This document shows, one piece after another, positions 20 to 51,276 of a stretch of DNA of 64,000 nucleotides (the first letter of the stretch is position 1; every line of letters begins with the position of its first letter). The DNA lies in the NCBI RefSeq assembly GCF_037042905.1, contig NC_087250.1, forward strand, positions 8,062,001 through 8,126,000, given 5' to 3'. Source of the DNA: Lytechinus pictus. Its lineage: Eukaryota. A program made the position numbers and the translations under genes. The notes under the pieces are model-generated. The model saw nothing but the letters and a program-made list of their open reading frames with translations, searched no databases and was not told the DNA's origin.

Positions 20-1018
20 ACCATATTAAATTTCACTCCATAGCCAGATGTCTAATAATAAACAAGTACTGACCAGTTTGAACTTGACCCCATGGCCATA
101 TGTCTTAATAAACAAGTACTGACCGGTTTGAACTTGACCCCATGGCCATATGTCTAATAATAAACAAGTACTGACCGGATTGAACTTGACCCCATGGCCA
201 TATGTCTAATAATAAACAAGTACTGACCGGTTTGAACTTGACCCCATGGCCATATGTCTTCATAAACAACTACTGACCAGTTTGAACTTGACCCCATGGC
301 CATATGTCTTAATAAACAAGTACTGACCGGTTTGAACTCGACCCCATGGCCATTTGTCTTCATAAACAAGGACTGACCGGTTTGAACTTGACCCCATGGC
401 CATATGTCTTAATTAACAAGTACTGACCGGTTTGAACTTGACCCCATGGCCATATGTCTTTCATAAACAAGTACTGACCAGTTTGAACTTGACCCCATGG
501 CCATATGTCTAATAATAAACAAGGACTGACCAGTTTGAACTTGACCCCATGGCCATATGTCTTTCATAAACAAGTACTGACCAGTTTGAACTTGACCCCA
601 TGGCCATATGTCTTATAATAAACAAGTACTGACCGGTTAAAACTTGACCCCATGGCCATATGTCTAATAATAAACAAGTACTGACCGGTTTGAACATGAC
701 CCCGTGGCCATATGTCTTATAATAAACAAGTACTGACCGGTATGAACTTGACCCCATGGCCATATGTCTTCATAATCTACTGACCGGTTTGAACTTGACC
801 CCATGGCCATTATCTTAATAAACAACTACTGACTGGTTTGAACTTGACCCCATAGCCAGATGTGTAGTAATAAACAAGTACTGACTGGTTTGAACTTGAC
901 CCCATGGCCATATGCCTTAATATACAAGTACGGACCAGTTTGAACTTGACTCCATGGCCATATGTTTAATAATAAACAAGTACTGACCGGTTTGAACTTG
1001 ACCCCATGGCCATATGTC
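20..1018. repeat. About 51-bp tandem array (about 19-20 copies) derived from the 3' end and donor of exon 1143-988
   Basis: Unit aataaacaagtactgaccggtttgaacttgaccccatggccatatgtct is continuous with the exon. Confidence 0.95.
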
Positions 1019-1143
1019 CATTCACCAAGGCCCGGTATGATGAAGAGGATGATGAAAATAAGAAGGGCCATCTCTCGAACAATGCTGGCTAATCCGCGGA
1101 TGGAGTTCAACGACGAGTGTCTGTAGATCCACACACGGTAAGC
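988..1143 (-). CDS. TRPA1-like exon encoding S3 and the S3-S4 loop (AYRVW...EWTYGHGVKFKP)
   Basis: catatag| and CCG|gtcagt; hydrophobic helix. Confidence 0.85.
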
Positions 1144-4100
1144 CTATATGCAAGAATCATTATTACATGTACATGTACATTACATGCCATTATATTAGCT
1201 TGTTCAATTAATAAAATATTCAATTATTCAAATAATAAATTATTTCTAATATTAAATAAGTAAAAATGTTTGATAATTGAAATGTGTAATATTTTAAATG
1301 TTTATTGACACAAAAAGTTTAATCCTAAAATAGCAGGGGTGGATCCAGGATTTTCCAAAAAGGGGACACATTATCCCGAGGAAAAATTTGACAAGCAAAA
1401 AACAAGGCAAAAGCAATTATGTGTCTCGCCCGCTTATGAAAATAACCAGAAATATCGTGATTCGCGAGGGCACGCAACAGAATTGTATCGAAACTTCATC
1501 GTGAAATGACTGGGATGGAGTAACACTTGTCATAAGAGCCTTGCACGTAAACTTAAATGTTGAGCTGAAAATGACCTTTGACCTTACCATGTGACCTCCG
1601 ACGACTGCAGCATAAGATGCAGGTCCCCCAAGTCCATCTACCATCCAAGTTTGGTTGAAAAGTGACTTACGGTCGCGGAGTTAGGTGTCATAAGAGTCTT
1701 GCATGTAAACTTTAACGTTGACCTTAAAATGACCTTTGACCTTATCATGTGACCTCCGACTGCAGCCTAACATGCAGGTCCCCCAAGTCCATCTACCATC
1801 CAAGTTTGGTTGAAAAGTGACTTACGGAGTTAGGCATCATAAGAGAGTCTTGCATGTAAACTTTAACGTTGACCTGAAAATGAACTTTGACCTTACCATG
1901 TGACCTCCGACTGCAGCATAAGATGCAGGTCCCCCAAGTCCATCTACCATCCAAGTTTGGTTGAAAAGTGACTTACGGTCGCGGAGTTAGGTGTCATAAG
2001 AGTCTTGCATGTAAACTTTAACGTTGACCTTAAAATGACCTTTGACCTTATCATGTGACCTCCGACTGCAGCCTAACATGCAGGTCCCCCAAGTCCATCT
2101 ACCATCCAAGTTTGGTTGAAAAGTGACTTACGGAGTTAGGCATCATAAGAGAGTCTTGCATGTAAACTTTAACGTTGACCTGAAAATGAACTTTGACCTT
2201 ACCATGTGACCTCCGACTGCAGCATAAGATGCAGGTCCCCCAAGTCCATCTACCATCCAAGTTTGGTTGAAAAGTGACTTACGGTCGCGGAGTTAGGTGT
2301 CACAAGAGTCTTGCATGTAAACTTTAACGTTGACCTTAAAATGACCTTTGACCTTATCATGTGACCTCCGACTGCAGCATAAGGTGCAGGTCCCCCAAGT
2401 CCGTCTACGATCCAAGTTTGGTTGAAAAGCGACTTACGGAGTTAGGCGTCATAAGAGAGTCTTGCATGTAAACTTTAACGTTGACCTGAAAATGACCTTT
2501 GACCTTACCATGTGACCTCCGACTGCAGCATAAGATGCAGGTCCCCCAAGTCCATCTACCATCAAAGTTTGGTTGAAAAGCGACCTATGGTTGTGGAGTT
2601 ATGTGTCATTAGGTTTGTGACGGACGGACGACAGACGACATTTGGATCCCTAAGTTTCGCTTTCACCTCTGGTGGGCGAGACAAAAAAGAGGTTTTCACT
2701 TTCAAAAGGGGCGGGCACACACTTCTGTGTTAACAGCATTTTTACAAAACAAAGTTTAATTGTACCTCTCAAAAAGGGGCATGGCCCAGCTTTGCCCCCC
2801 CCCCCTGGATCCGCCAGTGCCTATTAGGACTGGGCTGTTTCAGATATACTGAGTACTGTGGGACACCACAATCCCCCTTCTCATCTCAGCTGCTGTTGGC
2901 GTGACCGTGCCATAATTTGGCATGAACATTCATAAAAAAACATGAACAACGCTCAAATTCAATTCATGAAAACTTTTTTTATTGTAGATGTCATCTTTGC
3001 AATTTTATTTATAGATTTTCACAAAAAAAAGCAAAATTTCCCCTTTTTGTTTCCGGACTCGTTTATGAATTTTCTTTTTCCATTTTCAATGGAAGTCACT
3101 ACAGACCATTAAGCAACCAAATTTACCGCTAAATTGATAACTTTTTTAGGATAAAAAAATAAGAAAATTTATGATTTTTATCTTCCATTATCTTGAACAC
3201 ATTTTATTTGTGCACTCCGAAAAATTGCACGGAACATCAAGGGAATCCTTTAAGCCTTATTAAACTGATCAACAAATTTCGTCACTACACCGTCGCGCGA
3301 AATCTTTTTATTGCTCCGCTCGCTGACTTTTTACTTTCAAGTCTTGCGCATCTTTTGAGACCAAATTTGCGACGCCCGGCTACGTGGTTCCGAAATCACG
3401 CATCATTTTGTAAGAGCACGTCAGACCCAAAATTACTCAAAAACGTGATTCCGTGTATAAAGCCAATGCAAATTTAACAACCAAGAATCATAAATGTATG
3501 ATTATTTTTCTTTTGTTTGTTTAAATGGATTTTTAAAATGCTATTTATGATCGCAAAAGCGTCCCCCAACAAAGTTCAGTGGAAAAAAACATTAAAAAAC
3601 AAAGAAATACATGTATCAGACGAAAAAAAAACCAATAAAATAGATAAGAAATTAGTTATATTTTTCCAATTTTTTGTAGATATTTGTTAGAAATGTAAAC
3701 ATAGGCTCACAAAAAATTAGCTTTCTACTAGTTATATAAATTGAGTTAAAGGCAAAAAAAAAAAAAAATTATTGCAAATTTCATAAGCTTATTTGCATAA
3801 TTAATACAAAAACTAATTTTTTGAAAATATTACTATACAGTCTTGTAATGTAGTTTACATCTGGCTCTACACGCGTGCAAATTTTTGCGGCGATCGCGCA
3901 GCGACCCCCCCTCCGTATATCCTGGTCTGAAATAGCCCAGTGAAAATAGGGTTAATAAGCCAAATATTTAAAATTCAAATTGAGACACCCTTGTGAAAAG
4001 ATAGAATAAGAATTTTCTTACAAATTCTATGAAGTAGATGAGAGTGAGCACGATGATTATCCAGGTGCCGATTTGACCAAAGACAACAAGAGCCGACGGA

Positions 4101-7100
4101 TTCATGTTGTCGAGCCACTTGGTGCGCCCATCGGCCAACCACGTGTAGTTGGTGCCGTCTTCGTTTGTTTCTATGTAGAACGGCGGAGGAATGACCAGGC
4201 TATGTCCGGTCACCAGGATCACCAAGGTCAGCTGGAGGAACAGACTGATCCAGTATTTGAGCCGCGTTGATTTGTTCTTGTAGCGGAACATCAGGCGCAC
4301 GACCGGGTGATTTAGGAGCATTTTACTCTCGTCTTTCTGGATCTAAAAGAGGATAAAAATAAAGATGATGACGATGATAATAATAAAGCAATATTGACTG
4401 GCCTCGGGGCGCTATGACATATATCGCCCAAACTAGATTTATATCGCCCGAGTCGTAGACGAGGGTGATATCAATTTTAGTGGGGGCGAGATATGTCCTT
4501 TTGCCCCCAGGCCAGTCAATATTGCTATTATTAACCAAATCAGACATCTAGAGCAAAAATCGTTAAAATTCAGATATTTTAGAGTTTAAGAATGGGAATC
4601 TATTTTTGTCATCTTGAGCAGACTGGGCCTCAGAACTTTACCACTGTGATGTAATTGAAATGATGTGTCCCCGGCCTGGGGACGCAGAATCCAACATTGT
4701 CTCAACTTGATTAACATCGTGACGTATAGCACTGTGTGATTCATGGACGCTTACAAAAACGCGTAGAATACGGGGATGTTAGCTCTCTGCCTTATTGCCC
4801 GCTACATTTACACGCATTTTCTCATAGACTTTCCTGAGCGGGCAATAAATTTGTCTGTGGTTAAACAAGTGGAAACCGACCAACCACTTGATCACACTCT
4901 TAAGCAGGCAACAATGTATGAAAGCTACCCTGCTCAGATGTCTGATACGGTTAATGATAATACATATAATAATGATAATCATTACTATCATTATTTCTTT
5001 TTATCAATCTATGATATAATGATAAACATGAGGCGCTGATTATCTGGTTACACTTCGTAATTCTGAAGGTTCGTAATTCCAAAACACGTAAATTGCCTAT
5101 ACCTCGATGTTCGTTAATCCGAAAACGTAAAAGGGTTCGTTAATCCGAACATTTGTGGCGTTGTTCCGAAGGTTCGTTTTTTTCGAAGGTTCGAAAATCC
5201 GAAAACGAAATAAGGTTCGATGTTCCGAAGGTTCGTTAATCCAAAAACGAAATAAGGTTCGTTGTTCCGAAGGTTCGTTAATCCGAAAACGAAAAAGGTT
5301 CGTTAATCATTTCGTTTTCGGACTAACGAACCTTCGGAATTACGAACCTCATTACGTTTTCGGATTAACGAACCTTCGGAATTACGAACCTCATTTCGTT
5401 TTCAGATTAACGAACCTTCGGAATTACGAACTTTCGGAATTGCGAACCTTCGGAAATACGAACCTTCGGAATAACCGAACCTTCGGAATAACGAAGCTTC
5501 GGAATTACGAATGTATGCGGATTATCTAGTTCACTTTTCAGTGGCAAACTATATATTACGCCGGCTTTAGCTCGAGCTGCTTGAAGGCGCATTCAAGGAA
5601 TCAAGCCTGCTGGTTACCCATTCATCTCACCTGGGTTGAGTGCAGCACAATGTGAATCAACTTCTTGCTGAGGAAATTATGCCATGGCTGGGATCTGAAC
5701 ACATGACCCTCTGTTTCAAAGGTGAGGGTCAGAACCACTAGACCACAACGCTACAATATATACATGGAAATGTTTCCTCAACTGGCTAAACACAAAGAAA
5801 TTAACCATAAAGAAATGCATTCGTTGTCATGACAAAATAAATTAAAAAGCATAATGTAAATATTAACGAAAAAAAGACACATCACATGTTTACAATTTTC
5901 ATTTCCTTCTTCGGTGTTTTTTATCCATATATGAACAATATGTATAAAAATCTATCATTTCCCATAAAAAATTATTGAGGCAGTATTAACTAGTATTTAT
6001 CACCAGTATTACTAGACCCACTCCTGCTAATCCTGTTTATGATATCAACTAATGATTTAAAGCTCCTCTTGTGAAAGACCTGCAAAGTGTGAACGGACCA
6101 TTAGGGTGAATCTTGTTACATACCATGAGCCTTATTGGATGATTCTGAGCTCGGTAGACGGGGTCGGTCACATATATTACTGCGTTCTCTTTCAATCTCC
6201 CATCACTGTAGAAATTGGAGTCCTTTTGTACGAACAATAGGAAAATAAACAATTTCAGTCAAAATCATATCCCCATAAATGGTAGCAAAGAAAATTTCCA
6301 AGTAAAGCATATAACATATCTAATATATGATGAGCTCAATTGCAAAAAGGGGTTTGATCCATTTTTCATCAAATTTGATTTTTTTTTTGTCTCAATGTAT
6401 AGGGTTTTAGTAGCTCTCTAAGATGATACCAAAGAAAAGTTGAAATTCACATTAAAAAGTGAACAAAATTGGCAAAGAAAAATCACCTTTTTAGATCCAT
6501 TTCAGTTTGTTTGCAAAAGGGGCTAGATCCACAAAGGTAATTTTTGGAGAAAAAAAAAATATGCAGACAGGCAGAATTCTCTTATACCCAATTTTATGTT
6601 CACATGGTAGGGTATTTTATCATGACAATTTAGTTTCGCGTAAGAATATTGCAATATGGTAGAATAAAAAAACAAAACTCTAAATCAATTGGCACCTGAA
6701 TATCTTAATAATACCATCAAATTATACACACCCTCTCGTAATCTTCGTTCAATCACTGACACATGCAGACTTTGCATTCCCTTGTCAAAACTCTCCTCTG
6801 CCGAAAAACGTTTTGCTGTAGCAGCTGCCAAGACTTGGAATGCTATCCCTCTTTCAATAAGAAATGCTTCCAGTGTTCTTGGCTTCAAATCTTCCCTTAA
6901 GACATAACTTTTTCCTCAATAATGAATTTCCCTTTTTATCTTGAATATTGTAGTTGTTAAATTATTATTCATACATTGTACGCGCTATGGTACTTTTTGT
7001 TTTTAGCGCCTCTAAATATCCATTATTATTATAATTATTATTATAAAAAAAAAAATTCTTGGAATGGTCTGACGTGGATCTAACCCCTTTTGCAAATAAA

Positions 7101-10100
7101 TACTTCTTGAATGTTTTCATTTGAATATCATTCATGTATCACCATGCAATCTTCCATTTGTTATCAAAGGTGAATTTCAATGAACATTTTAACCAATTAT
7201 TGAATGTAAACGTATAAGTAAAACATGGAATGCAGACCTGCCAACCTCTGGGAATGAAAAACTGTATTCTGTGAAAAAAAAACTGTATTTTCAAAAAAAA
7301 AAAAATCCTGTTTATGATATCAACTAATGATTTAAAGCTCCTCTTGTGAAAGACCTGCAAAGTGTGAACGGACCATTAGGGTGAATCTTGTTACATACCA
7401 TGAGCCTTATTGGATGATTCTGAGCTCGGTAGACGGGGTCGGTCACATATATTACTGCGTTCTCTTTCAATCTCCCATCACTGTGTATTTCATAATAAAA
7501 TACTTGGCGCACTCGCTCATCGCGGCGCTCAAGCTGCATGCAAGCTAAAATGCGCACTGCTCTTGCAGATGGAAAAAAAATATATATTAAAACATGTGTA
7601 TATCTTCACCCTGGTTTTAACAAAATGATTGAAAAAAAAAAAAGTTACCTGAAATTACATTGATCTAATAACCATGTTTGTGACGTTTTATGAAATAGAG
7701 ACATATAGAGATTATTTTTCTCAATAAATTACGATTTAGTAAAAAAAAAAATTATTTTAATTATTATTTTTTTTTGCAAAAACGTACTAAATACGGCTAA
7801 AACGTACTGGTTGGCAGGTCTGGGAATGTTAAAGGCTTGCTGGGGAAATTTCATTATATTGTAAATACAATGGCTTTTAACTCAGTAAATAAAATCGCAT
7901 TGATCGATCCTTCTGATAAGTCTGAAAAAAAATCTATGAACCAGCAGGATTTGAAGCTCTCATCTACGGATTGCCAGTCAGCATATAACTAGGTTGAAAG
8001 CCATAAGTTGTATTTACAATATAATGAAACTTCCCCAGCAAGCCTTTAACATTCCTATTCATCGTCCATGGTGGACTAATATAAGAATGCATGTCAGATT
8101 GAATCAGGGGAACGGAGGGCTTTGTTCTTATTTCATCGTGACTGTGCCATGGACCAGTGATGGCCCGGTGGTACAGCCGCTGACCGGCAATCAGTAGATG
8201 AGAGGTTCAAATCCTGCTGGTTCCTCGATTTTTTTTTTGACTTATCAAATAGATCGATCAATGTGATCTTATTTACTGGATTGAAAGCCAATAAATTGTA
8301 TTACATATACTACACTACAAATTGGACGCATCCAAGAATGACACATCAATGGTAACTCTGGGCCCCGTCTTACAATGAGTTATGATTGATCTGATCAATC
8401 AAAACTATGGACGACCAGCAACGTAAACATCTATTATGCATGTTTGTTCAAAATATTTTCTAGCTATGATGTAAATTCATGCATTCATTATTTTCTTGAA
8501 AATTCACCGTGCTTCTCTTTGCATACAAAAGACATTGTGCAATTTTTTTAAAGAAAAAAGTTATGACACTGATGGATTTCCATAGAGTTATGATTGATCG
8601 TAACTCTTTGTAAGACGGGCCCAGGCTTCGCGATCTGACATGAGAATTGGGTAATCATGTAAGAAATTATTTGTATCCTACATATATGTAATTAATAAAA
8701 TTTAAAGGTCTCCGTCCTCTTGTTTTATGAGGGAGGCGCAACAAAAAGTACATCAGAAATAACTTCCTTCTCACTACGAAAACAGTGACCAGCAAATCTC
8801 GTACTACAGTTAATTACTGAGGAGGAGATAGGTGGGATTTCTTGCAGAAGGAAAAGACGCCATGGCTGGGACTTGAACCCACGTCCCTCTGATTGAAAGA
8901 CGAGAGTCGTGACCACTAGACCACGGCACCCCCTGACAGAAGTTATAAGCTACTGTGAATCCTTGCGCTCGATTGGCTGGGAGCTAATTAGTCAGTGAAT
9001 ACACCATGAAGTCCTCTCCATGGTCTTGTTTCACAAAGATTTAAGTATGACTTTAAGTCACACTTTAATGCTGACACGTACATGATATGCAACGCGCGAT
9101 CTTATTGATCACTACGCAGTAGTGCGCATCCTCTTGGCATGATCTGACCAATGTGGTCATGCCTTTTATGCCGCACGCAACGAGGCATTTAAGTGCGACT
9201 CTGATTAGGGGGTGTTGCAAGAAAATATTTGCAATCGATTGCAAATATTCTGTTGCAATCTTACAACTGATAGATCAAGTTTAATTGTAGCAAAGGAGAT
9301 CACACTCCATGTTTCGAGAAGCAGATTAGAAATCAATCACAGATTTGCAATTAATTGCAGGATATATGATTGATTTAGGCTCAAATAATAGACCTGCAAT
9401 TGATCGCAAGTTTCTTGCAGCACCCGATATGTCATACAGTACTCTTTGTGAAGCCCCCTGTAGTAATAACAAACTTAGCAAATTAAATTGAATGATTCCT
9501 GTGACTTTAAAGAGAAATTCCAGTATTTGCAGTAAACACTGATTTCATGAGAAAGTCTGTAAAACAAGGCTTAATTGTCAGTATATCATCGAGGATCTAG
9601 ATCTGGTACAGTTACATAAACTGAACTTTGTGAAATCTTGAAATCTACGCTGAAAAATGTTCACACTGAAGATCACCAACACAGATAGGCACACGTGGGA
9701 CAGTGTATTATTATTGCTAAAATAAAGACCCGACGGAAGTGACCGAATCCGCGCTTATTTTGCTTATTTCTCAGCAATTACACAATTTCTTCCAGAATCC
9801 TTTGGCACATATTTTTTATTCATACAAACAGACACTTAGGTGGTCATTATATTAGATTCTGTAAAAAGTCATTTTTAGATCGTTACCAAAACTGGAATTT
9901 ATCTTTAAAGTTGTTATTGTAAATTTGTTATCGTAAGTTTTATGACACCCTCCATGGGTCTTACCGATTCTTCTGCATCGTCGAGGTGGTAGTCCGCAGT
10001 CCCAAGTTGGCTGATCGTACGCATCAACATCCCGTAACCTCTATCAGCAAAGTTCCCTCGGCTTCCTGTAACAAATCACGAAGGGTAAAATATTGGATTT

Positions 10101-13100
10101 CTGTTAACCCTAGTGAAATAGGCCTGGAGCAGATCATGGATTTTCCATAAGGGGGAAATAAAGCCTTCACTCTTGGATGAAGGTTAGTTATGTCACAAAA
10201 GATTTGACAAGAAAAAAAAAAGGGTTTCATTTCAGCATGCCCCATATTTTCCATCCGAATATCTTTTTATTGCTGTCAAAAGGAGAGATCCATCACTGAG
10301 GTAGGCTCTCAGTACAAAAATAATAAATAATAATACAGGATTTGTATCGCGCACATACATGTATCCACCTTGCTAGGTACTCCTGTCGGTACCCATTAAA
10401 CTCCCCCGGGTTGAGTGCAGCACAATGTGGGTAAATTTCTTTGGAATGGAACCCATGTCCTTCAGAATGAAAGACAAGAGTCTTAACCACTAGACCACGA
10501 CGCCCCACAAAGGGGCATTAAAACTTTTCCCACCAGCAGCGATGTATAGTGCCACTTAAAGTCCTCAACAAATTTAATCTGGCCAGTTTCTGAACCCATA
10601 ATGCAACATTTTGTGCAGCATATTCCTTTAAATAACCTCACATCTGAAAACCAATACAAATTCATTCTGCCGACCCATTTTATAAAACAAATGATGCACG
10701 ACGTGAATTGAAATGAATGAATGGAAGATACATGTATCTTACTAGGGGTTGGTGAGGTTCGCATCCAAATCCGAAAACCAAAACAAATTCATTCGACCGA
10801 CCCATTTTATAAAACAAATGATGCAAGATGTGAATTGAAATGAATGAATGGAAGATTTCTTATTAGGGGTTGGTGAGGTTTGCATCCAAATTCATTCTAC
10901 CGACCCATTTTATAAAACAAATGATGCATGATGTGAATTGAAATGAATGAATGGAAGATATCTTACTACGGGTTGGTGAGGTTTGCATCCCAGTCCGAAA
11001 AACAATACAAATTCATTCTGCCGACCGTTCTTATAAAACCAATGATGCACGATGTGAATTGAAATGAATGAATGGAAGATATCTTACTACGGGTTGGTGA
11101 GGTTTGCATCCCAGTCCGAAAAACAATACAAATTCATTCTGCCGACCGTTCTTATAAAACCAATAATGCACGTTGTGGAAATGAAATAAGATATCTTACT
11201 AGAGGTTGGTGAGGTTTGCATCCAATCAGAAAACCAGTCCTCAAGGAGCTCATAGTCGACTTTGATCTTTACCGATGTTGTGTCGTCCATGTCTGTATCT
11301 GTCAGTCTTGTGATGCATTTATCAAGGACAAAACGACAGACACCTGAAATAAAAAAAGATCAAGTTACAGAATTCATTATCATTTCAAAATGATTTAAGC
11401 ATTGGGATTCACCATGTGAATAGTCGTGAATAGGAATGATGGGTTTGGTGTAATAAATGTAAGAAAATGAAAGAGGTATAGAGGAATTGAGAGGCATAAA
11501 GGCAAATAGTAGAGTGGTAATTAGTACAGTATCATTTCTTGGACACAAGTTCTGAAGAGAGAGAAATATTCAGATGAGACTGGGAGATAAAAAGGAAAAA
11601 AAAATGGTTGATTGAAGTAGGCAAGTGGGGATGATGTTTGTAATAATGGTGATGATGATGGTGGTGATGAAGATGGTGGTGATGATGATGATGGTGGTGA
11701 TGATGGTGATGATGATGGTGGGGATGATAATGATTGTGGTGATGATGATGATGATGGTGATGATGATGCTTGTGGTGATGATGATGGTAATGATGATGAT
11801 GATGGTGATTATGATGGTGATGATGATGTTGGTGATGATGATGATGGTGATGATGATTGTAATAATGGTGTTGATGAAGATGACGGTCATGATAATGATG
11901 ATGATGGTGGTGGTGATGATGCTGATGATGATGTTGATGACAATGGTGATGATGATGGCGATACTGATAATGATGATGACAGTGGTGCTTGTGATGACGA
12001 TGACAATGTGACTTACCTGGCATAGTTGTGATGAGTTTCCTCATGGGGGTAGTTTTGTTTGCTCCTTCGCCGGTAGAGTGAGTCATCAGATACCGCCACT
12101 TCTCTTGTGATAACAGAGTTACGGCAACCATTCTATTGGCCAAAAAAAAAATTCATTCAAATTAATTATTTATCAGGAAGCATTGTGGTGTGCTTGTAAA
12201 ATAAAATTTACATTCTAACAGTGCTTTTAATAGTACATGTAGCTAATCAAAATCATTGCAAAGATATGTTCCACTGCAACCTACTCATGATTACAGATAG
12301 AATGGTCCAAGCAATTCCTTCTCTTCACATCGCACTCTAAGAACTCCGTTTTGATTGGCTGCTGAGGCATGATACCATGGTGATGGGGCTCAGCAGCCAA
12401 TCAAAATCATGGTTACATGGTAAGCTTATGCTCTACTGCAACCTACTCATGATTATGGATAGCATGGTCCAAGCAAGTTCTTCTCTTCGAATCAAATTCT
12501 AAGAACTTGATATTTATCAATATATGTTTGTTATATGTTTGTATTTTTGTTGTAGGGCCTCCAAGGACAACATTATACCAATTACTGATGGAGCCACCCT
12601 ACTAAAAAAAGACTTATAAATAAATAAATAAATAAATTTATTGGCTGTTGAGTCAGTTTACCATGGCAATGGGGATCGCCAGCCAATCAAAATCATGTTT
12701 ACATGGCAGAATATAAGTGCCACTTACTCATGACCATTACGGATAGCATGGTCCAAGCAATTCCTCCCCTTCGCGTCACACTCAAAGAACTTGATTTGAT
12801 CCTGATCCTGCTCAAAGAGCATCTCCACAATCAGAATATTCCCTATCTTACAAGCATACATCAATGGGGTCATCTGCACAAGGTCAAAGGTCAACAAGGT
12901 CATTACAAATGGTACAAGTTGGAGGTAAGATAATCATTTAGCAATCATTTCATGAGCATGGAAGCAGACTTCAAGAAAATTTCTTACTTTATAGGCGTTA
13001 CATAAACAGGGTCATCTACACGAGGTCAAACAAGGTCATTACAAATTACGAGTATTTGAAGATGCATTAGTAGTTGGTGTTACATGTATTTCCTGGCTAA

Positions 13101-16100
13101 TTAGTTCTAAGCCAATTAGATAAATGGGCTTCAGTGAAAATCACTATTTGTTCATTGAAATGCTATTTGATTTTTTAAAGGAAAAGTCCACCCCAATAAA
13201 AATTTTATTTGAATAAAAAGACAAAAATCCAACAAGCGTAACACTGGAAATTTTATCAAAATCGGATGTATAATAACAAAGTTATGAAATCTTCAACTTT
13301 CACTTAATTTAGCAAAATAGTTATATGCACATCCTGGTCGGTATGCAAATGATGTGATCAGTAAAAATTGAAATATTGTATAATTCAAACAATAAAGACA
13401 AAAGAAAACTTCGGTGATGGACATCACTGAATCTCCCATTTGCACGTCACTGCATTGTGCATATAAAGCGAAACCTTAAAATGTCATAGCTTTATTTTAC
13501 ATCCAATTTTGATGAAATTTTCAGCATTACGCTTGTTTGATTTTTCTCTTTTGATTCAAAGCAACATTTTTGCTGGGGTAGACTTGACATTTAAGTGATG
13601 ATAATAAAAAATGACTTACCCCTTTATTGTCTTGAATCGTCACAAGTGACTTGTCAGTCTTCAGGAGAAGCTTGGTGGTTAGTTTATGGCCTTTTTTGAT
13701 CGAAAGATGAAGAGGTGTTTGTCCTAAACTATTCCTAATCAATCAAAGAAAAGAATGATTGAGTGACTTGTCTGTCTTTAGAATAAGGTAATTGGTGAGT
13801 TTATTACCCATATTGAAAGCAAGATGAAGAAGTGTTTGTCCTAAACTATTCCTAATCAATCAAAGAAAACAATCATTGAGTGACTTGTCTGTCTTTAGAA
13901 TAAGGTAATTGGTGAGCTTATTACCCATATTGAAAACAAGATGAAGTGGTGTTTGTTCTAAAACATTCCTAATCAATCAAAGAAAACAATCATTGTGATG
14001 AGTGACTTGTCTGTCTTGAGAAGAAGCTGGGTGGTTATTATTTTATGAGCAAGATGAAGTGGTGTTTGTTCAAAAGTATTCCTAGTCAATCAAAGAAAAG
14101 AATCATGATGATGATGATGATGAGTGACTTGTCTATCTTGGCGACTAGTTTATGAGCCCTTTTGAAAGCTAGATGAAGCGGTGTTTGTCCTAAACTATTC
14201 ACAACCAATAAAAAAAAAGAATCATTGTGATGCGTGACTAAACAGTCTTCAGGAGAAGCTTGGCGGTTATTAGTTTATGAGCCCTTTTGAAAGCAATATG
14301 AAGTAGTGTTTGTCCTAAACTATTCCTAATCACTCAAAGAAAACAACAGTGATGAGTGACTTGTCTATCTTTAGAAGAAACTGGGCGGTTATTAGTTTAT
14401 GAGCCCTTTTGAAAGCAATATGAAGTGTTTGTCCTAAAATATTCCTAATCACTCAAAAAAAACCATCATTGTGATGATTCCTAGTCAATCAAAGAAAACA
14501 ATCATTGTGGTGAGTAACGGGTCTGTCTTGAGAACAAATTAAGTGGTAAGTTTACAACTCATTTCGAAAGCAAGAAGAAGTGTTTGTCCTAAACTTTTCC
14601 TGATCACTCAAAGAAAACAATCATTGTGGTGAGTAACGGGTCTGTCTTGAGAACAAATTAAGTGGTAAGTTTACAACTCATTTCGAAAGCAAGAAGAAGT
14701 GTTTGTCCTAAACTTTTCCTGATCACTCAAAGAAAACAATCATTGTGGTGAGTAACGGGTCTGTCTTGAGAACAAATTAAGTGGTAAGTTTACAACTCAT
14801 TTCGAAAGCAAGAAGAAGTGTTTGTCCTAAACTTTTCCTGATCACTCAAAGAAAACAATCATTGTGGTGAGTAACGGGTCTGTCTTGAGAACAAATTAAG
14901 TGGTAAGTTTACAACTCATTTCGAAAGCAAGAAGAAGTGTTTGTCCTAAACTTTTCCTGATCACTCAAAGAAAACAATCATTGTGGTGAGTAACGGGTCT
15001 GTCTTGAGAACAAATTAAGTGGTAAGTTTACAACTCATTTCGAAAGCAAGAAGAAGTGTTTGTCCTAAACTTTTCCTGATCACTCAAAGAAAACAATCAT
15101 TGTGGTGAGTAACGGGTCTGTCTTGAGAACAAATTAAGTGGTAAGTTTACAACTCATTTCGAAAGCAAGAAGAAGTGTTTGTCCTAAACTTTTCCTGATC
15201 ACTCAAAGAAAACAATCATTGTGGTGAGTAACGGGTCTGTCTTGAGAACAAATTAAGTGGTAAGTTTACAACTCATTTCGAAAGCAAGAAGAAGTGTTTG
15301 TCCTAAACTTTTCCTGATCACTCAAAGAAAACAATCATTGTGGTGAGTAACGGGTCTGTCTTGAGAACAAATTAAGTGGTAAGTTTACAACTCATTTCGA
15401 AAGCAAGAAGAAGTGTTTGTCCTAAACTTTTCCTGATCACTCAAAGAAAACAATCATTGTGGTGAGTAACGGGTCTGTCTTGAGAACAAATTAAGTGGTA
15501 AGTTTACAACCCATTTCGAAAGCAAGAAGAAGTGTTTGTCCTAAACTTTTCCTGATCACTCAAAGAAAACAATCATTGTGGTGAGTAACGGGTCTGTCTT
15601 GAGAACAAATTAAGTGGTAAGTTTACAACCCATTTCGAAAGCAAGAAGAAGTGTTTGTCCTAAACTTTTCCTGATCACTCAAAGAAAACAATCATTGTGG
15701 TGAGTAACGGGTCTGTCTTGAGAACAAATTAAGTGGTAAGTTTACAACCCATTTCGAAAGCAAGAAGAAGTGTTTGTCCTAAACTTTTCCTGATCACTCA
15801 AAGAAAACAATCATTGTGGTGAGTAACGGGTCTGTCTTGAGAACAAATTAAGTGGTAAGTTTACAACCCATTTCGAAAGCAAGAAGAAGTGTTTGTCCTA
15901 AACTTTTCCTGATCACTCAAAGAAAACAATCATTGTAGTGAGTAACGGGTCTGTCTTGAGAACAAATTAAGTGGTAAGTTTACAACCCATTTCGAAAGCA
16001 AGAAGAAGTGTTTGTCCTAAACTTTTCCTGATCACTCAAAGAAAACAATCATTGTGGTGAGTAACGGGTCTGTCTTGAGAACAAATTAAGTGGTAAGTTT

Positions 16101-19100
16101 ACAACCCACTTCGAAAGCAAGAAGAAGTGTTTGTCCTAAACTATTCCTAATCAATCAAAGAAAAGAATCATTGTGATGAGTGACTTGTCTGTCTGAGAAT
16201 AAGTTATGTGGTGAGAAATGTCTTCAGGTAAGACATCAACAGTCAACTCATTAGTACAGTCAGTAAAACTCTTACTAGGGTTCTCAGAATGCATACTGGA
16301 TTAAGCATAATTTTAGATGCAATCTGCATAAATGGGTCAAAACTAGTATACAGGCACAAACCTTTGGTTTTCAAAATTCGCATAGTGCACATTGCAAAGT
16401 CTGAAGTAGTGAGACTAGACTCACTACATGTATGTACTGTGGCTGCCTCTTATTTGACAGACAGACGGAAAGTTTCGGGTCTACAGTAGTCTTTACTCCA
16501 GACAGGGTGTAATTGGCTAGAGTGTCCAATTTGAGTCTGCGCTTGCAGACTAGTCCAAAACTACAGATTCAAAGTCATTTCGGCCTACAAGTTTGAAAAT
16601 AATCCTATCTTACTGTTCACAGAGTCTGACATCATCATCGTCCTGGTTCTTCAGGATAGCTTTGGCCGTGTCTAAATGACCCCCCTGGGCGATCAGGTGC
16701 ATGATACTGTTATCTTGGGAGTCTTTCAGATGGAGAGAACGCCTGTGCCATGATGCAAACTCCAATAGACTCCTACATGTACATAAGAATGAAAACATGA
16801 ATTGATGACATTGTAACTGAGGGGTTATGGATCAAGATACAGGCATTTATTTAAACTGGGTTCCAAAAGAAACTGATCAAACTTTACAAGGGCGCTTCTC
16901 AAATTTCACTCAGTCAAAATGAACAATATTTTTACACAGGCTAGCTTCAATAATCTTTACTACACATATGTCAATAATTAAGAGATTGGTTCAATCACAG
17001 AGAGGTTATAGCCCCTCAAATCAATTGGTTTCAGAACCCAAAGTCATGAAATGGCAAAAGAACAACCACTGAAAATGAGATGCGATTAAACAAACTTCCC
17101 ACTTTATCACACATTTCCTTCACAGGCCACTTTAAGTGAATGGCTTGATCTCAAAGAAGCAACAGGAAGTCAAAATAAAAATGTTAAATGACTAGAAGAA
17201 TCACACAGGAACAGATCCCCGGGAATGTCCCGGTAAGCGAGGGATAATCTGAACTCAGCGTTTTTCTGTGTGTGTCTGAGTTAGATACACAGAGACACGC
17301 TCCGTGTTCAGATTATCCCCCACTTACCGGGACATCTTCGGGGGGGGGGGGGGGGGTGTTGTATGCTGCTATGTGATTGTTACAGTCATTTAAAATTTTG
17401 ATGTTAATTTCCTATAGCTTCTTTTTTGATTGAGCCAAGCACTAAAACATGCCAGTGAAGACATGTATAGTAAACTCAGAAGTTTGATTAGTCATGTCTC
17501 AATTTCAATGGTCTCTCTTTTGCCACTTTGCATGTTTCGTGACTTTGGATTCTGAAAACAATTGATGTGATAGGCTACACTCTCTCTGTGATTGAAGGAA
17601 TCTCTTACTGTGCTTAGTAAAGATTACTGTATAGAAACCATGTTATTCAAAATAGTAAATGGGCTACATGGCAAAATGGATGTAGACCAAATGTGACCAG
17701 CGACTCCAAAACCACCAATAAGTCGCTAGGGAAGGTTCTCTGTAATAGTCAAAATAGTAAATTGGTCTTCAAAAAGCCAAAATTTAAAAATTGGCTTAAT
17801 TAATATCTCAAAATTCATTTTGGTCAAGTTATTGTTGGTTTTGGGGTGGAAAAGGAAAGTAGAAAAACTGGATTTATTCCGATACTTACTCTGTCTGTCC
17901 TTTGGCTGCACAGAGCAGGATAATCTTCTCCATCTCCATAGATTCACATCCTGTACTGATGTCATCAAACCGGTTTAGCAACTCCTACAAGAGAGAGTTA
18001 AAGGTAAAAGAAAGTAGTTGCAGCAAACAATAATTTCATGAGAAAGTCTTTGAAATCAAGGTGAATGCCACCATATTATCATATATCTATTTCTGGTACA
18101 TTGAAATCACCTCATCTTTGTGAAATCATGAAATCTATGCTAAAAACGGATAATTCTGATGATCACTAACAAAAAAAGGCATATGCGGGACGATGTATTA
18201 ATATTATTTGGAATAATACCGGACATTTTATGAAATTCCGTGCTTATTTTGCTCATTTCTGAGCAATTACACATTTTCCTCCACAGTCATTTGGCACATA
18301 TTTTCTATCTATACATTCTTACACTTGGGTGGTCATTTTATTGGATTCTGTTTGGACTCATTTTGAGAACGTTACCACAACTGGTGTTTATCTTTAAAAT
18401 TATAAACACAAACAAACTTCCAAAGAAATTTACAAACAATTCTTCTCTAAATCAGGGAGGAAGATTTGGATCCTTTCTACATTAAATTTCAAGAAACTAA
18501 CTTGATTTTAAGGCATTTAATCTATTCAGTATACTTCTACATAAAATTTCCTGTCAATCCATACCAAATTCCGTCAGATTTTTTTTTATGTGTCTACTTT
18601 AAGGACAATGTAAAGGTACTCGGTAAAAATGTCAGCAGTATCTAGGACGCTTCTTGACTCTGCTGGTGGTGGTATACGGTCCTATGACATTTGCTACGGC
18701 GACAACTGCTCCGCTGTAAATTCCACACACTAAAGGAATGACCAACTTAAACCCTGGATATATTACTATACCCTATCATAAAACTAACACAAAACCCCTA
18801 TTCCAAACCTAACCCAATTGTCGGCAGAGCAAATGTCGTATCACCTGGTATACAAATGATAGAGGTAAAAAAAAGTCACAGGTAAAAGCAAACTGAACGT
18901 ATTACCAATGTCATAATTGGTATCTTTAAAACATGATACATAGATGAATAAATTAGACATACCTGAAGCACCAAAGAAAGATTTTTTTCGACTGAGATCC
19001 ATTTGATGAGTTCAATCAGGATGGATGAATCTTTGATGTGTTTGAGAAGGACAACCAGGCTATCGCTAGATCCTTTCAAAGCAGTGAACTTCAGCAGAGA

Positions 19101-22100
19101 TGGAGATCCGTCAACTTCGTAGTCATTTAAATTTAGTTTCACCTCCTTGTCATGACTGAAAATAAAATATAAATAATAATATTAATAAAAACGGCATAGG
19201 CCTATTTACCCAGGGTAGCCACTTCAGTTGCGAAAAATGTTCTCCCAATGGGCCTGCCCTGCAATTATTATTACCCCGACTATAGAGTACCGAAGTGATG
19301 ATGTCACAAAAAACTTTTTTAGCATTTTAGATACCATATTTTGGTAGAGCATGATGAAAAACCCCCACTACCAAAATTTGGTGGGAATCGGTCCATTGGG
19401 GCCTTAGATATGACCTCACGAATACATAATTAGCCCCATTGAAGTCAATGTATTATTGGTCTGGTTTTAAATATTAGGAACCAGGTCAATGATACATTGA
19501 CTTCAATGGGGCTAATTATGTATTCATGAGGTCATATCTTGGGGCCCCATGGACCGATTCCCACCAAATTTGGATTGTGGGGGTTTTTCATCATGCTCTA
19601 CAAAAAGTATGGTATCAAAAACCCTGAAATGCTAAAAGTGAAAACTGATGACATCACACTTCCATACTCTATAGCCTAGGCGCTCAAGCATGCAAGGAAT
19701 TTCTTCCTACCGGGTACCCATTCACCTCACATAGGTTGAGTGCAGCACAATGTAGATGAGTTTCTTGCTGAAGGAAATTACGCCATGGCTGGGATTCGAA
19801 CCCACGTCCCTCAGATTGACAGATTAAAGTCATAACCACTAGACTACGACACACCCACATATATAGGGAAACCAATATTTATATCAAAACAAGTAGGCCT
19901 ATAGAGTATACTTACATGTAGTTCTTCTTTAGTACGAACACATAACTTAGCAACTGGTATGAAATAATGTTATTCATTAATGAAAACGACCAACGTCAGC
20001 GTTCATCCGGTCTGACATATCAGACCATTTTAGTCAAAATATCGATGGTGAGATTTTTCACAGAAAATGAAAGAACAAGTCATACTCTATACATAGTTAA
20101 CTTTCTATCCATCGATTTATTTTAGTTTCGGAGAAAAGAGAGCATTTTCAAGACAATGGCATAAATCTGATTGGAAACGTGTACTGCGGCAGAGCAAACA
20201 ACAGCTGCGTGCATTTAATGAGCAAACATGCGGTCAGCAAACCTTTCTATCCGTATGCATTGACTTTGCAGATGAAAGAATGTTACCACAGTTTGCGTGT
20301 ATTGAAAATGCAATCAGGACTGGTGTATTCCCTATGATCTTTTTTTTGCACAGGGGAAATGTAAACCGCTTTAACTAAAATTACAATCATGTACAGTATT
20401 TCATTTGTGATATTTTCTCCTATTCTCAGTACTGTGTAAAAATTGAAATATCGATGTCAAGCAAATATCTAGCTTTTCCAACTATGTAGTTTTTCTGGCA
20501 ATAAAAATATCGTACGGCTGGGGACAAAAATGTGGAGATTACAGTAAACTTTTAATTCATTTTTGTCTGAAACGGGTTTGCGATGTCGTATCTGTGATAC
20601 AACGGTGCGGATGTACAGTACTGAGTAATTCTTGTTTATTACACACACACATACCTTTGATACATGATGCATATTTCTTCTGTGACTTCGGCATAATTTC
20701 CCCTGCAGGCATAGTGCAGAGGCGTCAGCCCTTTTGAATTCTTTGCATCGAGGAGTAGAGGGCAAAGGTCGTGGAGCATATGGAGGATATCGAGGTGTCC
20801 CTGTTTGCAGGCAGTGTGCATGATGGTAGATCCGTAGCGAGACTTGACGTCCAGAAGATAATTGGCAGAGGCATTTTCTTTCTGATCTTCTGGACTTACT
20901 GAAAAAATTATCAATAAAGAAATAAAATGTTATAATGATACTAAACTGTGGAGGATATCTAGATGTCTGTTTGCAGGCCGTGTGCATGATGGTAGATTCG
21001 TAGCGAGACTTGACGTCCAGGAGATAATTGGCAGACACACCCTCCTTTTGATCTTCTGGACTTACTGAAAAAATTTATCAATAAAGAAATAAAATGTTAT
21101 AATGATACTAAACTGTGGAGGATATCTAGATGTCTGTTTGCAGGCCGTGTGCATGATGGTAGATCCGTAGCGAGACTTGACGTCCAGGAGATAATTGGCA
21201 GAGGCACCCTCCTTTTGATCTTCTGGACTTACTGAAAAAATTCATCAATAAAAAAATAAAATGTTATAATGATAATACATGTAGGCTGTGGAAGATATCA
21301 AGGTGTTTGTGTGCATGATGGTTGATTCGTAGCGAGACTTGACATCTAGGAGATAATTGGCAGACGCATCCTCTTTCTGATCCTCTGGACTTACTGAAAA
21401 AAATTGTCGATAAAGAAGAGAAAGAGAGTATATGAATGATATCAAGATGTCAGTATGAAGGCCGTATGGATGACTGACTTGATGGTAGATCCATGTACGT
21501 AGCGAGACTTGACGTTGAGGAGATAATTGGCAGACGCACCCTCTTTCTGATCTTCTGGGCTTACTGAAAATAGTAATTAATGAAGAAGAGAAATATATAT
21601 TCTAGACTGTGAGAGATAGCAAGAAAAAAGGCTATGAACCATGCAAAAATTTTGCAGAATTGCTGCGATATTGATCGATTGCGCTCCGAAACAGAATAAA
21701 AATGGTTGCACCCATGCATGGGGATTACAATGCTTCAGGCTGATAAATTCAAGCGAGACAAGGCAAAAGCGATTTTGTGTCTCGCCCAATTTTTGAAAAT
21801 AACCAGAAATATCTTGATTTGCTAGGGCACGCAACAGAATTGTATCGAAACCATGACGTGTTTCCTCCGTTTAAGAAATACCCCACCAGGTTATAACACA
21901 GGAACCCCTTTGCCCTGCGTGTTATGTCAATGGGAGCTCAAGTGGGGTATATTCGACACCCCACTTTCAGTTTTTGGGAGAGTTTCATTTCTCTCTTTTA
22001 AACTGGGGAGGGGTGGACTGACAGCTGATAAGAGCTGATAACACACAGCAACCAATGATGACCACAGCGAGTGAAGTTGGATTGCAGCTGTCCACCTTAC

Positions 22101-25100
22101 GTAAAAGTATAAACAAACTTTTAAGAGCTTCCTGGCCCTTCCTGGCTGACAGAAATCTAGGAATGATTAATTTGTATTCTATTTGTTTTAGGACATTGGC
22201 ATATCGAAATTTAGATGAAGATCAAAATGGAAGTTTGAACGATGCAAAATGACCCACAATTGGCGAAATTAGAATAAGTAAAACAAAAGAAGTTCTGGAA
22301 TATTGCATGTCTCTCTTCCTCTCTCCCTGCCAGTGCTGCCAGGCAGTGAGGGTCACTGTGAAATGACTGGGATGGAATAACACTTGTCATAAGACTACGT
22401 AAACTTTAATGTTGACCTCAAAATGAACTTTGACCATACCATGTGACCGCCCAACACAATAGCATGCAGGTCCCTACATCTACCATCCAAGTTTGGTTGA
22501 AAAGTGATTTACGGTTGCAGAGTTATATGTCATAAGAGAGTCTTGCACGAAAACTTTAATGTTGACCTGAAAATGACCTTTGACCTTACCATGTGACCTC
22601 CGACTGCAGCATGACATCCTGGGGAGCGTTTCATCAATATTTTCATCCGACAAGTTGTCAGATCTGACATCTTTCCTTGATTCTGATTGGCTGAGAGGCA
22701 CTGTTCCTATGGTAACTGTCGGATAAACTGGTACTTGTCGGATAAAATGTCCGACAAGTCCTTTCATGAAACGCCCCCAAGGTCTCATAACTACATCGAC
22801 AATACAAGTTTTTGTGAAAAGTGACTTGCGGTTGCGGAGTTAGGTGTCATAAGAGAGTCTTGCATGTAAACTTTAACGTTGACCTGAAAATGACCTTTGA
22901 CCTTACCATGTGACCTTCGACTGCAGCATAACATGCAGGTCCCGCAAGCCCATCTACCATCCAAGTTTGGTTGAAAAGTGACTTACAGTTGTTGAATTAT
23001 GTGTCAGAAGGTTTGTGACGGACGGACAATGGACGACATTTGGATCCCTAAGTCTCGCCTTCACCTCTGGTGTGCGAGACAAAAATTGAGAATTCCTGCT
23101 CAGTAATATTATTTTCATAGCTACTTGCTTGATTTATGGTTTGGAAAAATCGTATCATGTAAAAGTTTTAATATATAGATCAAGATAAGGAAATTGAAGT
23201 CTGAAAGTGCTTGATATTCTCGGTCTTTGGTGACACTGAATTTTTCTATGTTTTCTTTATTTTAGTGGTCCACTGGTCTGGAAGAAATTGCACCGGTGAC
23301 TGATGGCTTTGGGCAGGCACCATTGAACCATCAGAGTTCGACTCAGGCCTACTTTAAATATCGATATTTTATTATTGTAGAGTATGAAAATGAATAGAAA
23401 ATTAATGATTGTTGCCAATTTGAGGTTGCCATTTTGATGAACAAATGATGATTAATCTCGACCCCATGAAGCTATGTATCTTTAGAAATTAAATACCTAC
23501 CACAGAGCATACAGCACCTGATCAGCATCTCATTACCCGTCTTGATAACCTCGTGGAGCACCGTCTTCTGATAGATGTTCTGAGCCAACAAAATCTGCAA
23601 ATAACCGAGAAAAAAGTATTGCATTATAGGCTACTTATTTGGACTAAATTCTGATCAGGGGAGTCTTTCATCAACATTTGCGTCTGACAAGTTGTCTGAT
23701 CTGGGGCCTGTTGCAGAAAGAGTTGCGTTTAAACGCAAGTACAAAAATCAATCGCAAGTCCCAAATGCGCGCTGTTGATTGGTTGAAAATCAAGTTGCGC
23801 ATAATTTTTAGAGTTGCGATTGATTGCAACTCTTTCTGCAACGGGCCCCTGACATCCGTTCTTGATTTTGATTGGCTGAGATGCACGGATCGCATGGTAA
23901 ATTTCGGATAAAACAGTACTTGTCGGATAAAACGTCTGACAATTCCTTTCATGAAATGCTCCCCAGGGGGAGTGTTTCAACAACATTATTGTCCGACAAG
24001 TTGTCAGATCTGACAACTTTTCTTGATTTTGATTGGCTGGGAAGCACTGTTACTATGACAACTGTCGGGTAAAACAGGACTTGTCGGATGAAATGTCCCA
24101 CAAGAGCTAGCTTTCATGAAACGCTCCCCAGAGCAACTCAAATATAGTTAAATTTGGACTTACACTGGAATATATAGAATAATTTTTTTAAATTCCCCCC
24201 CCAAAAAAATCAACTGATACTGTTTTTAATATCCTCAAAAGCAAGTGTGCCCAATATCGCATCAAAATTAGAGCTAAATATTTGATTTTCTTCCAAAAAC
24301 ACTCTGGCCCGTCGCCTCTAAATTGATGCTTGTTACCGAGGATACAGAACCAATGAGTTCTCATTTTTGTTTTGATTAATGTATATAACAGTGGGCTCAT
24401 TAATGCCGTAACCTTAGTAACGGTTGATAATTTTGCTCCTATTATACGCTTTCTCAATATACTCGCTGAATTAAGCTTAATTGATGATGAAATCTGTGTG
24501 AACCATGGTTTTAAACCACTACTTCAAAACCACCTTTGACAAATTCGAGCCTCCATGTCCATTAAGGGATGGGAAAAGGGTGTATGGGGGGGGGGGGGGG
24601 GCGGGGGAGGTGCCAAGGACCCTATCTAGGTCAATTTATTCATATATATATATATATTTTTTTTTTATCGGGAGGGGGGGGAGGTGCCAAGGACCCTATC
24701 TAGATCAATTTATTCATATATTTTTTTTGTGTTTTTTTTTCGGGAGGGGGGGGGGGAGGAAGGAACATTGCTTCAATTTAGTGGTGACCTTTGTCCTTTC
24801 TCGCATACATTCGTAATTCCGAAGCTTCGTTATTCCGAAGGTTCGGATATTCCGAAGGTTCATTATTCCGAAGGTTCGTATTTCCGAAGGTTCGTAATTC
24901 CGAAGGTTCGTTAGTCCGAAAACGAAATGAGGTTCGTTATTCCGAAGGTTCGTTAATCCGAAAAAGAAATGAGGTTCGTAATTCCGAAGGTTCGTTAGTC
25001 CGAAAACTAAATGATTAACTAACCTTATTTCGTTTTCGGACTAACGAACCTTCGGAACATCGAACCTTATTTCGTTTTCAGATTATTGAACCTTCGGAAT

Positions 25101-51166: not shown

Positions 51167-51276
51167 TAGCCAGGAGGCTTCTAGAGAGTAAAAATCATTT
51201 ACTAACGTCGGCTTACTTCATCGAGATTAAGCCTACGTTAGTAAATGATTTTTACTCTCTAGAAGCCTCCTGACTA
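51167..51276. mobile_element. 110-bp palindromic hAT-like MITE
   Basis: TAG...CTA termini, 8-bp TSD GCCTTACA. Confidence 0.8.

Follow-up and report, generated by a model that had tools for sequence, protein, structure and literature searches.

An intron of a TRPA1-like channel gene contains a TIR element that is interrupted by an exact copy of DNA from the neighboring exon of the same gene. Our best reading is that this arrangement probably represents a repair-mediated duplication inside a resident transposon, that is, a single-copy Pack-TIR. The broader proposition that a break was repaired from local DNA, with repair triggered by excision of the element counted in, appears very likely. The analysis covered a stretch of 64,000 nucleotides (64 kb, the window) along with public sequencing runs from related urchins.

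The host gene, the element and the copied segment

The host gene model (33202 to 988) reads open for 958 codons. P0002, a protein with ankyrin repeats and an ion-transport domain, is identical to it at 921 of the 956 residues aligned. The best protein matches are TRPA1 homologs of Lytechinus pictus and L. variegatus (91–94% identity), and relatives have paralogous TRPA1 genes. The host gene is an intact TRPA1-like gene on the minus strand, from a sea urchin that resembles Lytechinus. An isoform of S. purpuratus (P0005) aligns without the residues of exon 16 (6124-6222) and exon 14 (11200-11343), which may point to alternative splicing or to mis-annotation of the two exons in relatives. The features of the locus, in window coordinates, are:

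988..33202, reverse strand: host gene, ankyrin-repeat TRPA1-like channel, 18 exons in the window, continuing beyond the window start
6124..6222, reverse strand: true exon 16, 99 nt, 33 codons, phase 0-0; the depth pattern in one public run (X6) is consistent with a spliced contig
9965..10065, reverse strand: exon 15, which ends at 9965 in phase 0
6029..6209, forward strand: template (parental copy), 1275 bp from the insert
7304..7484, forward strand: exact copy, 181 bp, equal to 6029-6209, with 95 bp of intron 16 and 86 bp of exon 16
7227..7232: left target-site duplication (TSD), GGAATG, 6 bp
7233..7246: left TIR, 14 bp; family contig matches begin at 7233-7234
7233..7305: left arm of the non-autonomous TIR element; it holds the TIR, ACTGTA twice in sub-terminal position following A-runs (7261 and 7282), and the A13 run at 7293-7305
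7483..7822: right arm of the element, whose first 2 bases (GT) are the right microhomology
7809..7822: right TIR, 14 bp; family matches stop at 7821-7822
7823..7828: right TSD, GGAATG, also the tip of a 48-bp inverted-repeat arm

The preliminary description of this DNA had claimed that positions 7304-7484 and 6029-6209 are identical at an offset of 1275 bp, and this was borne out at 181 of 181 bases on the same strand (blastn, E 8e-92). It had also described the copied DNA as most of an exon with its donor and the start of an intron, which is accurate, as the template comprises the final 86 of the 99 bases of exon 16, the donor and 95 bases of intron 16. Because the copy includes the donor and the 95 intron bases, it is not a spliced retrocopy. 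It lies in sense orientation in intron 15, upstream of its own exon 16. Apart from the copy, the template sequence is unique within the 64-kb window, and it is not flanked by elements within 100 bp, based on depths of 20-180 across 5900-6322 in two contig runs of relatives (X1 and X5); the nearest repeat begins in the bin from 6323.

The element itself is 590 bp long (7233-7822), and the perfect 14-bp TIRs and 6-bp TSD that had been claimed for it are present, with 14 of 14 TIR bases complementary and GGAATG on both flanks. A perfect 14-bp TIR pair with a 6-bp TSD within 1.5 kb occurred in none of 30 Markov-1 simulations of 64 kb, as compared with two in the real window. The other of these two, at 51186-51257 (72 bp), is flanked by the 6-bp palindrome TCTAGA and is probably part of a longer hairpin. 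Within the 64-kb window there is no second copy of the element's TIR, the five other matches each having 3 mismatches. The perfect TIRs and TSD suggest that the element belongs to a young, perhaps active, family.

hAT elements typically have a short TIR together with sub-terminal repeats. Based on the 6-bp TSD at this one insertion, the hAT6 group is a candidate superfamily assignment for the element, which resembles hAT6 in its 6-bp TSD, short TIR and sub-terminal repeats and differs in that it has no transposase and no partner element was found, so that the assignment stays at candidate level. The hAT6 group of hAT transposons is described as having a 6-bp TSD in a passage of PMC12730594 that cites Kapitonov and Jurka (2007). 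IS3EU elements have 6-bp TSDs too, but their TIRs are longer than 30 bp and end in TAYGG..CCRTA, features that are absent from this element. A search of the open-access literature for the element's TIR returned no published match, the hits being unrelated biomedical papers by title, and there were no Rfam matches in 5500-10500 at E values up to 0.1. Exact patterns of the left end had no match among metagenome, genome or viral contigs, nor did a gapped pattern in metagenomes; none of these collections comprises urchin assemblies, and these blanks carry no weight.

Several other repeats lie around the insertion. A 48-bp, 98% inverted-repeat pair (7823-7870 and 8008-8055) is overlapped by a second pair (7864-7982 and 8179-8297, 85%), and 8008-8297 belongs to a moderately repeated family in relatives; the element may have inserted at a fold-back structure (7823-8297). 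Ten bases just inside the left TIR (7247-7256) are the same as 7819-7828, where the element's final 4 bases run into the right TSD, a likeness that may reflect chance or a similarity-guided choice of target. Between the template and the element there is another abundant repeat with a 27-bp, 93% inverted-repeat pair (6506-6532 and 7074-7100), and a joint that skips 6670-7074 was seen in relatives.

Insert-free members of the element family

The element family was surveyed by matching 4 of the 24 listed public runs of related urchins to positions 5900-10100 at 80% likeness. Three of these runs are contigs (X1, X5 and X6, the last from organism B and RNA by guess) and the fourth (X23) consists of raw RNA reads from organism A, of which about 25% were read. 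All are runs of relatives, with a best share of words with the window of 0.21.

The element family is very abundant in these runs and lacks the insert. Depth over the left arm (bin 7169-7309) was 25,409 in X1, 61,126 in X5 and 9,495 in X6, and over the right arm (bins 7451-7732) it was 18,000-150,000 across the three contig runs, as compared with 22, 3.3, 0 and 0 in the four runs for the bin within the insert (7310-7450). The contrast in depth between arms and insert is that of a repeat family without the insert. In X1 and X5 the arms were 25,000-150,000 deep versus 60-180 on the template, or 280-850 times the template bins, and the insert bin was at or below template depth, with the reservation that depth is not equal to copy number.

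The same picture was obtained from joints that skip the insert, which run from 7282, 7291 or 7301 to 7483-7485 and were found in all four runs (20 contigs in X1, 20 in X5, 3 in X6 and 101 reads in X23; these are 5 of the 15 joints listed, from 1,123 in all). The right-hand landing points of the family joints fall at 7483-7486. In one contig, the joint from 7301 to 7485 has only 2 other letters between its sides, which implies that little element DNA was lost. The preliminary description had treated the existence of other copies of the TIR family as decisive, and abundant insert-free members were found when the relatives' runs were examined.

Insert-free members have the A-run followed directly by the bases from 7483 onward. 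From this we infer that AA on the left, which are the final 2 bases of the A13 run, and GT on the right are common to the element and the template, and that, once these microhomologies are counted as element DNA, the net gain is about 177 bp in an empty element of about 413 bp; the left joint point varies among members, and the microhomology and empty-element lengths are approximate values from short table entries. The limits of the family matches agree with those of the element. The longest right-hand sides end at 7822 (X5 and X6) or 7821 (X1), and the left-hand sides start at 7233 or 7234 in the contigs and at 7229-7231 in the raw reads. There was no link from element to flank among the 24 pieces and the 15 of 1,123 joints listed.

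Age and origin of the copy

The absence of differences over 181 bases places a 95% upper bound of 1.6% on the divergence of copy and template. By comparison, contigs of organism A over the template differ from the window at about 5-11% of bases (23/270 and 40/372). At all four listed sites within the segment where every organism A contig differs (40 of 1,308 differences were listed), the copy has the base of the window. As the copy shares the window's own alleles, it derives from the locus of this lineage, after the split from organism A. The copying event therefore appears to be recent, and the original proposal of a recent, templated copy from the adjacent locus is supported.

In our best reading the insertion came first and the copy later, an order that we assume. 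A non-coding member of about 413 bp, from an abundant TIR family with a 6-bp TSD, inserted into intron 15 of the TRPA1-like gene, and a double-strand break or a collapsed fork would later have arisen near 7305, in the A-run of its sub-terminal region. A 3' end would then have paired through 2 bases with DNA 1.3 kb away, been extended over about 177 bp and joined back to the other end through 2 further bases; the observed junctions, at which almost no element DNA is missing, would suit either SDSA or gap filling guided by microhomology. This event would be recent, and the copy is most likely removed with the intron, a low level of use as a poison exon being possible. The two-ended microhomology gives modest support to the repair reading: microhomology of at least 2 bases at both ends was found in 4.0% of 20,000 random pairings, and 2 bases at one end alone are expected by chance in about 19% of cases per end.

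Comparable events have been catalogued. The passages of Pace, Sen, Batzer and Feschotte (2009; PMC2671141) on repair-mediated duplications count 824 of them in human elements, their donors no more than 5 kb away, with a distance peak of about 1,200 bp, a mean length of 162 bp and microhomology of 2-9 nt. Four of the 824 had partial exon/intron donors, and there is also an exon of ACSBG2 that was copied into an intron of its own gene (PMC2671141). The feature described here resembles these duplications in being an element interrupted by a copy of nearby DNA, 1,275 bp away, 177-181 bp long and with microhomologies of 2 and 2 bases. It is unlike them in that, as far as those passages go, the survey was of vertebrates and the copy of ACSBG2 has inverted orientation; the one described here is in sense, upstream of its own exon and with its donor intact. 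By the definition used in that survey, a donor lies more than 50 bp and less than 5 kb from an insert of at least 50 bp (here 1,275 and 181 bp), the breakpoints show microhomology, filler or a small deletion (here shared AA and GT, as deduced from the family joints) and no poly(A/T) is added (here the A-run is also in insert-free members and has the wrong polarity for a tail).

The main sections of Tan et al. (2021; PMC8277862) describe 370 animal Pack-TIRs, mostly single-copy and mostly within 5 kb of the parent, with a median microhomology of 2 bp, a median size of 224 bp and 13.4% exonic, and attribute them to transposition-independent gap filling. Its supplement includes five cases in S. 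purpuratus (strPur2), all piggyBac, one with its parent about 130 bp away (PMC8277862). Our feature is like their single-copy Pack-TIRs in that the arms of a single TIR element surround a stretch of non-element DNA, longer than 100 bp, that has a close parent, and it differs from the listed urchin cases in that those are piggyBac, in contrast to an element with a 6-bp TSD. Both ends of the same TIR element, each keeping at least 10 bp of terminus, enclose its insert, which falls within 100-5,000 bp, is at least 90% identical to a parent of similar length (181/181) and is absent from the family. The feature is thus a fresh example of a class already catalogued in vertebrates and a sea urchin, from which it differs by its 6-bp-TSD family, sense copy and intact donor. 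In the parts that deal with mechanism, both papers (PMC2671141; PMC8277862) explain such cases by ordinary break repair within elements.

That almost no element DNA was lost and that the microhomologies are short is consistent with ordinary break repair within a resident element, and the element probably does no more than mark the repaired break, with no active capture. The preliminary description had proposed a Pack-type capture by gap repair; the recent, templated copying in cis stands, and it is the active part given to the transposon that we consider less likely. The closest competitor retains that active part: the element would have been excised and the gap refilled from the sister chromatid, with synthesis briefly diverted to the exon 1.3 kb away before returning. 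The perfect TIRs and TSD and the great abundance of the family suggest recent activity, the breakpoint is near the element end (73 bp from the left, relative position 0.18) and not deep inside it, and the main text of Tan et al. (2021) allows such a route for a minority of single-copy cases (PMC8277862). Abortive repair of this kind is, however, expected from the same text to leave larger deletions, and almost no element DNA is missing here (7301 to 7485). Transposition-dependent gap repair is possible but unlikely. It is far less probable still that the fragment was taken up during or before a local hop, giving a multicopy Pack-TIR with insert-bearing copies elsewhere. With both TIRs kept the element would be movable in trans, but the window has no second TIR copy, insert-bin depth in relatives is at or below the single-locus level, and the multicopy Pack-TIRs reported in the sections of Tan et al. 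(2021) on copy number are far from their parents and make up only 4 of 281 (PMC8277862).

We also think it very improbable that the assembly joined exon and repeat by a chimeric path. The 100% identity and the homopolymer at one junction are what such an artefact could produce, and the reads compared are those of relatives; yet it would take one precise jump away from the repeat and a second one returning to the neighboring base of the family sequence, and the structure matches the common natural class represented in the survey passages of Pace et al. (PMC2671141). Least credible of all, to the point of being nearly negligible, is retro-insertion, in which a LINE enzyme primed at the A-run would have placed a piece of pre-mRNA. 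The A13 run does adjoin the insert, and Pace et al. (2009) take such tracts as a sign of retroposition in their treatment of duplications (PMC2671141), but the run is at the 5' side on the forward strand and is T on the sense strand, so that it would be a 3' tail in neither orientation. Moreover, the A-run is at the same place in insert-free family members, and there is no duplication around the insert beyond the family's sub-terminal repeats. Break repair inside a resident element remains our preferred reading.

Local partial copies are also associated with other parts of the host gene, as 7 of its 18 exons have them; five are tandem or near-tandem arrays and one is a dispersed copy of exon 4 (90%). 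The arrays are:

38-1018: 52-bp units of the end of exon 18, about 19 copies
10657-11223: 103-121-bp units of the end of exon 14
12275-12800: pieces of exon 12
13645-16212: 117-119-bp units of exon 11, of which the block 14478-16212 has 14.6 copies at 98%
20781-21570: 167-bp units of the start of exon 7 with its acceptor, 4.7 copies

We considered whether exons are preferred templates at this locus and rejected the idea, since the count of 7 of 18 compares with a mean of 6.9 expected (P 0.57). That local partial copies are common without any Pack element is context against a special activity of the transposon. The arrays at exon ends hold spare splice sites, yet the frame of the host gene is open, and they are not enriched over random placement. 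The dispersed copy (25895-26031) is 137 bp long and 90% identical to 28434-28570, the end of exon 4 with its donor, which lies 2.5 kb away, the copy being in the next intron; it looks like a second, older repair-mediated duplication.

Splicing potential of the copy and its significance

As the copy carries an exon end with its donor into the preceding intron, the following pseudo-exons can be proposed:

7399..7480, reverse strand: candidate pseudo-exon, 82 nt, whose AG (7482-7481) and donor GT (7398-7397) are both copied; it would shift the frame and open with TGA
7399..7561, reverse strand: alternative pseudo-exons with element-borne acceptors, 163 nt from 7561 and 158 nt from 7556, both with stops
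7399..7533, reverse strand: in-frame alternative pseudo-exon from 7533, 135 nt, stop-free, 45 aa, score -0.63

The acceptor at 7480 had been described as new, which holds for the upstream tract, contributed by the transposon, and not for the AG (7482-7481), which was copied from exon 16. The transposon as the source of that AG was rejected, the same AG preceding 6205 inside exon 16. The frameshift logic that had been attached to this acceptor is sound: after the phase-0 end of exon 15 the 82-nt exon would begin with TGA, and at least two more exons would follow it. A premature stop with later exons present is a target of NMD.

Scored with an acceptor matrix that is small and rough, having been trained on the host gene's 17 acceptors, the 7480 site reached 0.15, up from -3.6 in its exon context, and ranked 29 among the 206 AGs in the intron. 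Real acceptors, left out in turn, scored from -1.0 to 8.1, with the true exon 16 acceptor at only -0.16; the 7480 acceptor would thus be weak but within the range of real ones. The element also supplies acceptors that score above 7480, namely 7561 (3.15), 7556 (2.42), 7610 and 7648 (2.4-3.2), all of which lead to stops. The copied donor ranks first among 191 GTs, partly by construction as the identical native donor is in the training set of 18, in which the exon 6 donor is probably placed 3 bases early (23504 for 23501) with the reading frame unaffected. Downstream of the copied donor, the left arm (7237-7282, reverse strand) holds the top acceptor-like site of the intron (7282, score 7.7) and three others in the top 15.

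A contig of X6 with a depth of 8.14 covers 58, 40 and 77 bases of three bins, of which exons 16 and 15 would occupy 58, 41 and 77; one G at the joint is ambiguous. At all 6 listed exon positions that set organism A apart from the window, this contig has the window's base. It fits the normal splice from 9965 to 6222, the joint being deduced from the depth arithmetic and not from a listed joint. The contig has nothing on the copy; contigs drop rare isoforms, and X6 may not carry the allele. No reads of X23 fell on exons 15 and 16, in a run that was read to about 25% and may not carry the allele.

The pyrimidine-rich acceptors of the right arm (7561, 7556 and 7533), the captured donor, which is the best in the intron, and the weak acceptor of true exon 16 raise the idea that the element now acts as a chimeric-exon cassette, which we consider unlikely. 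Were it so, a stop-containing chimeric exon would lower TRPA1 dosage through NMD, and the in-frame exon from 7533 would add 45 residues, or swap them in, in the region that links the ankyrin repeats to the membrane domain. With its TIRs intact, the element could also bring this acceptor and donor, as a finished cassette, into other introns. The transcribed human cases of Tan et al. (2021) are retained introns, UTR extensions or non-coding RNAs, and a cassette poison exon is not reported in the main sections of that paper (PMC8277862); a limited search of the open-access literature gave no description of a Pack-TIR that serves its own host as a poison exon.

The example is clean and very young, and its value is that of a test case for an already catalogued class. 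A copy with zero differences is probably young enough for alleles with no element, with the empty element and with the filled element to coexist. Such coexisting states would date the capture relative to the insertion and would separate the two triggers of repair. If the chimeric exon is used, a sensory channel gene would here have gained a new exon in one step, its acceptor coming from the element and its donor from copied host DNA.
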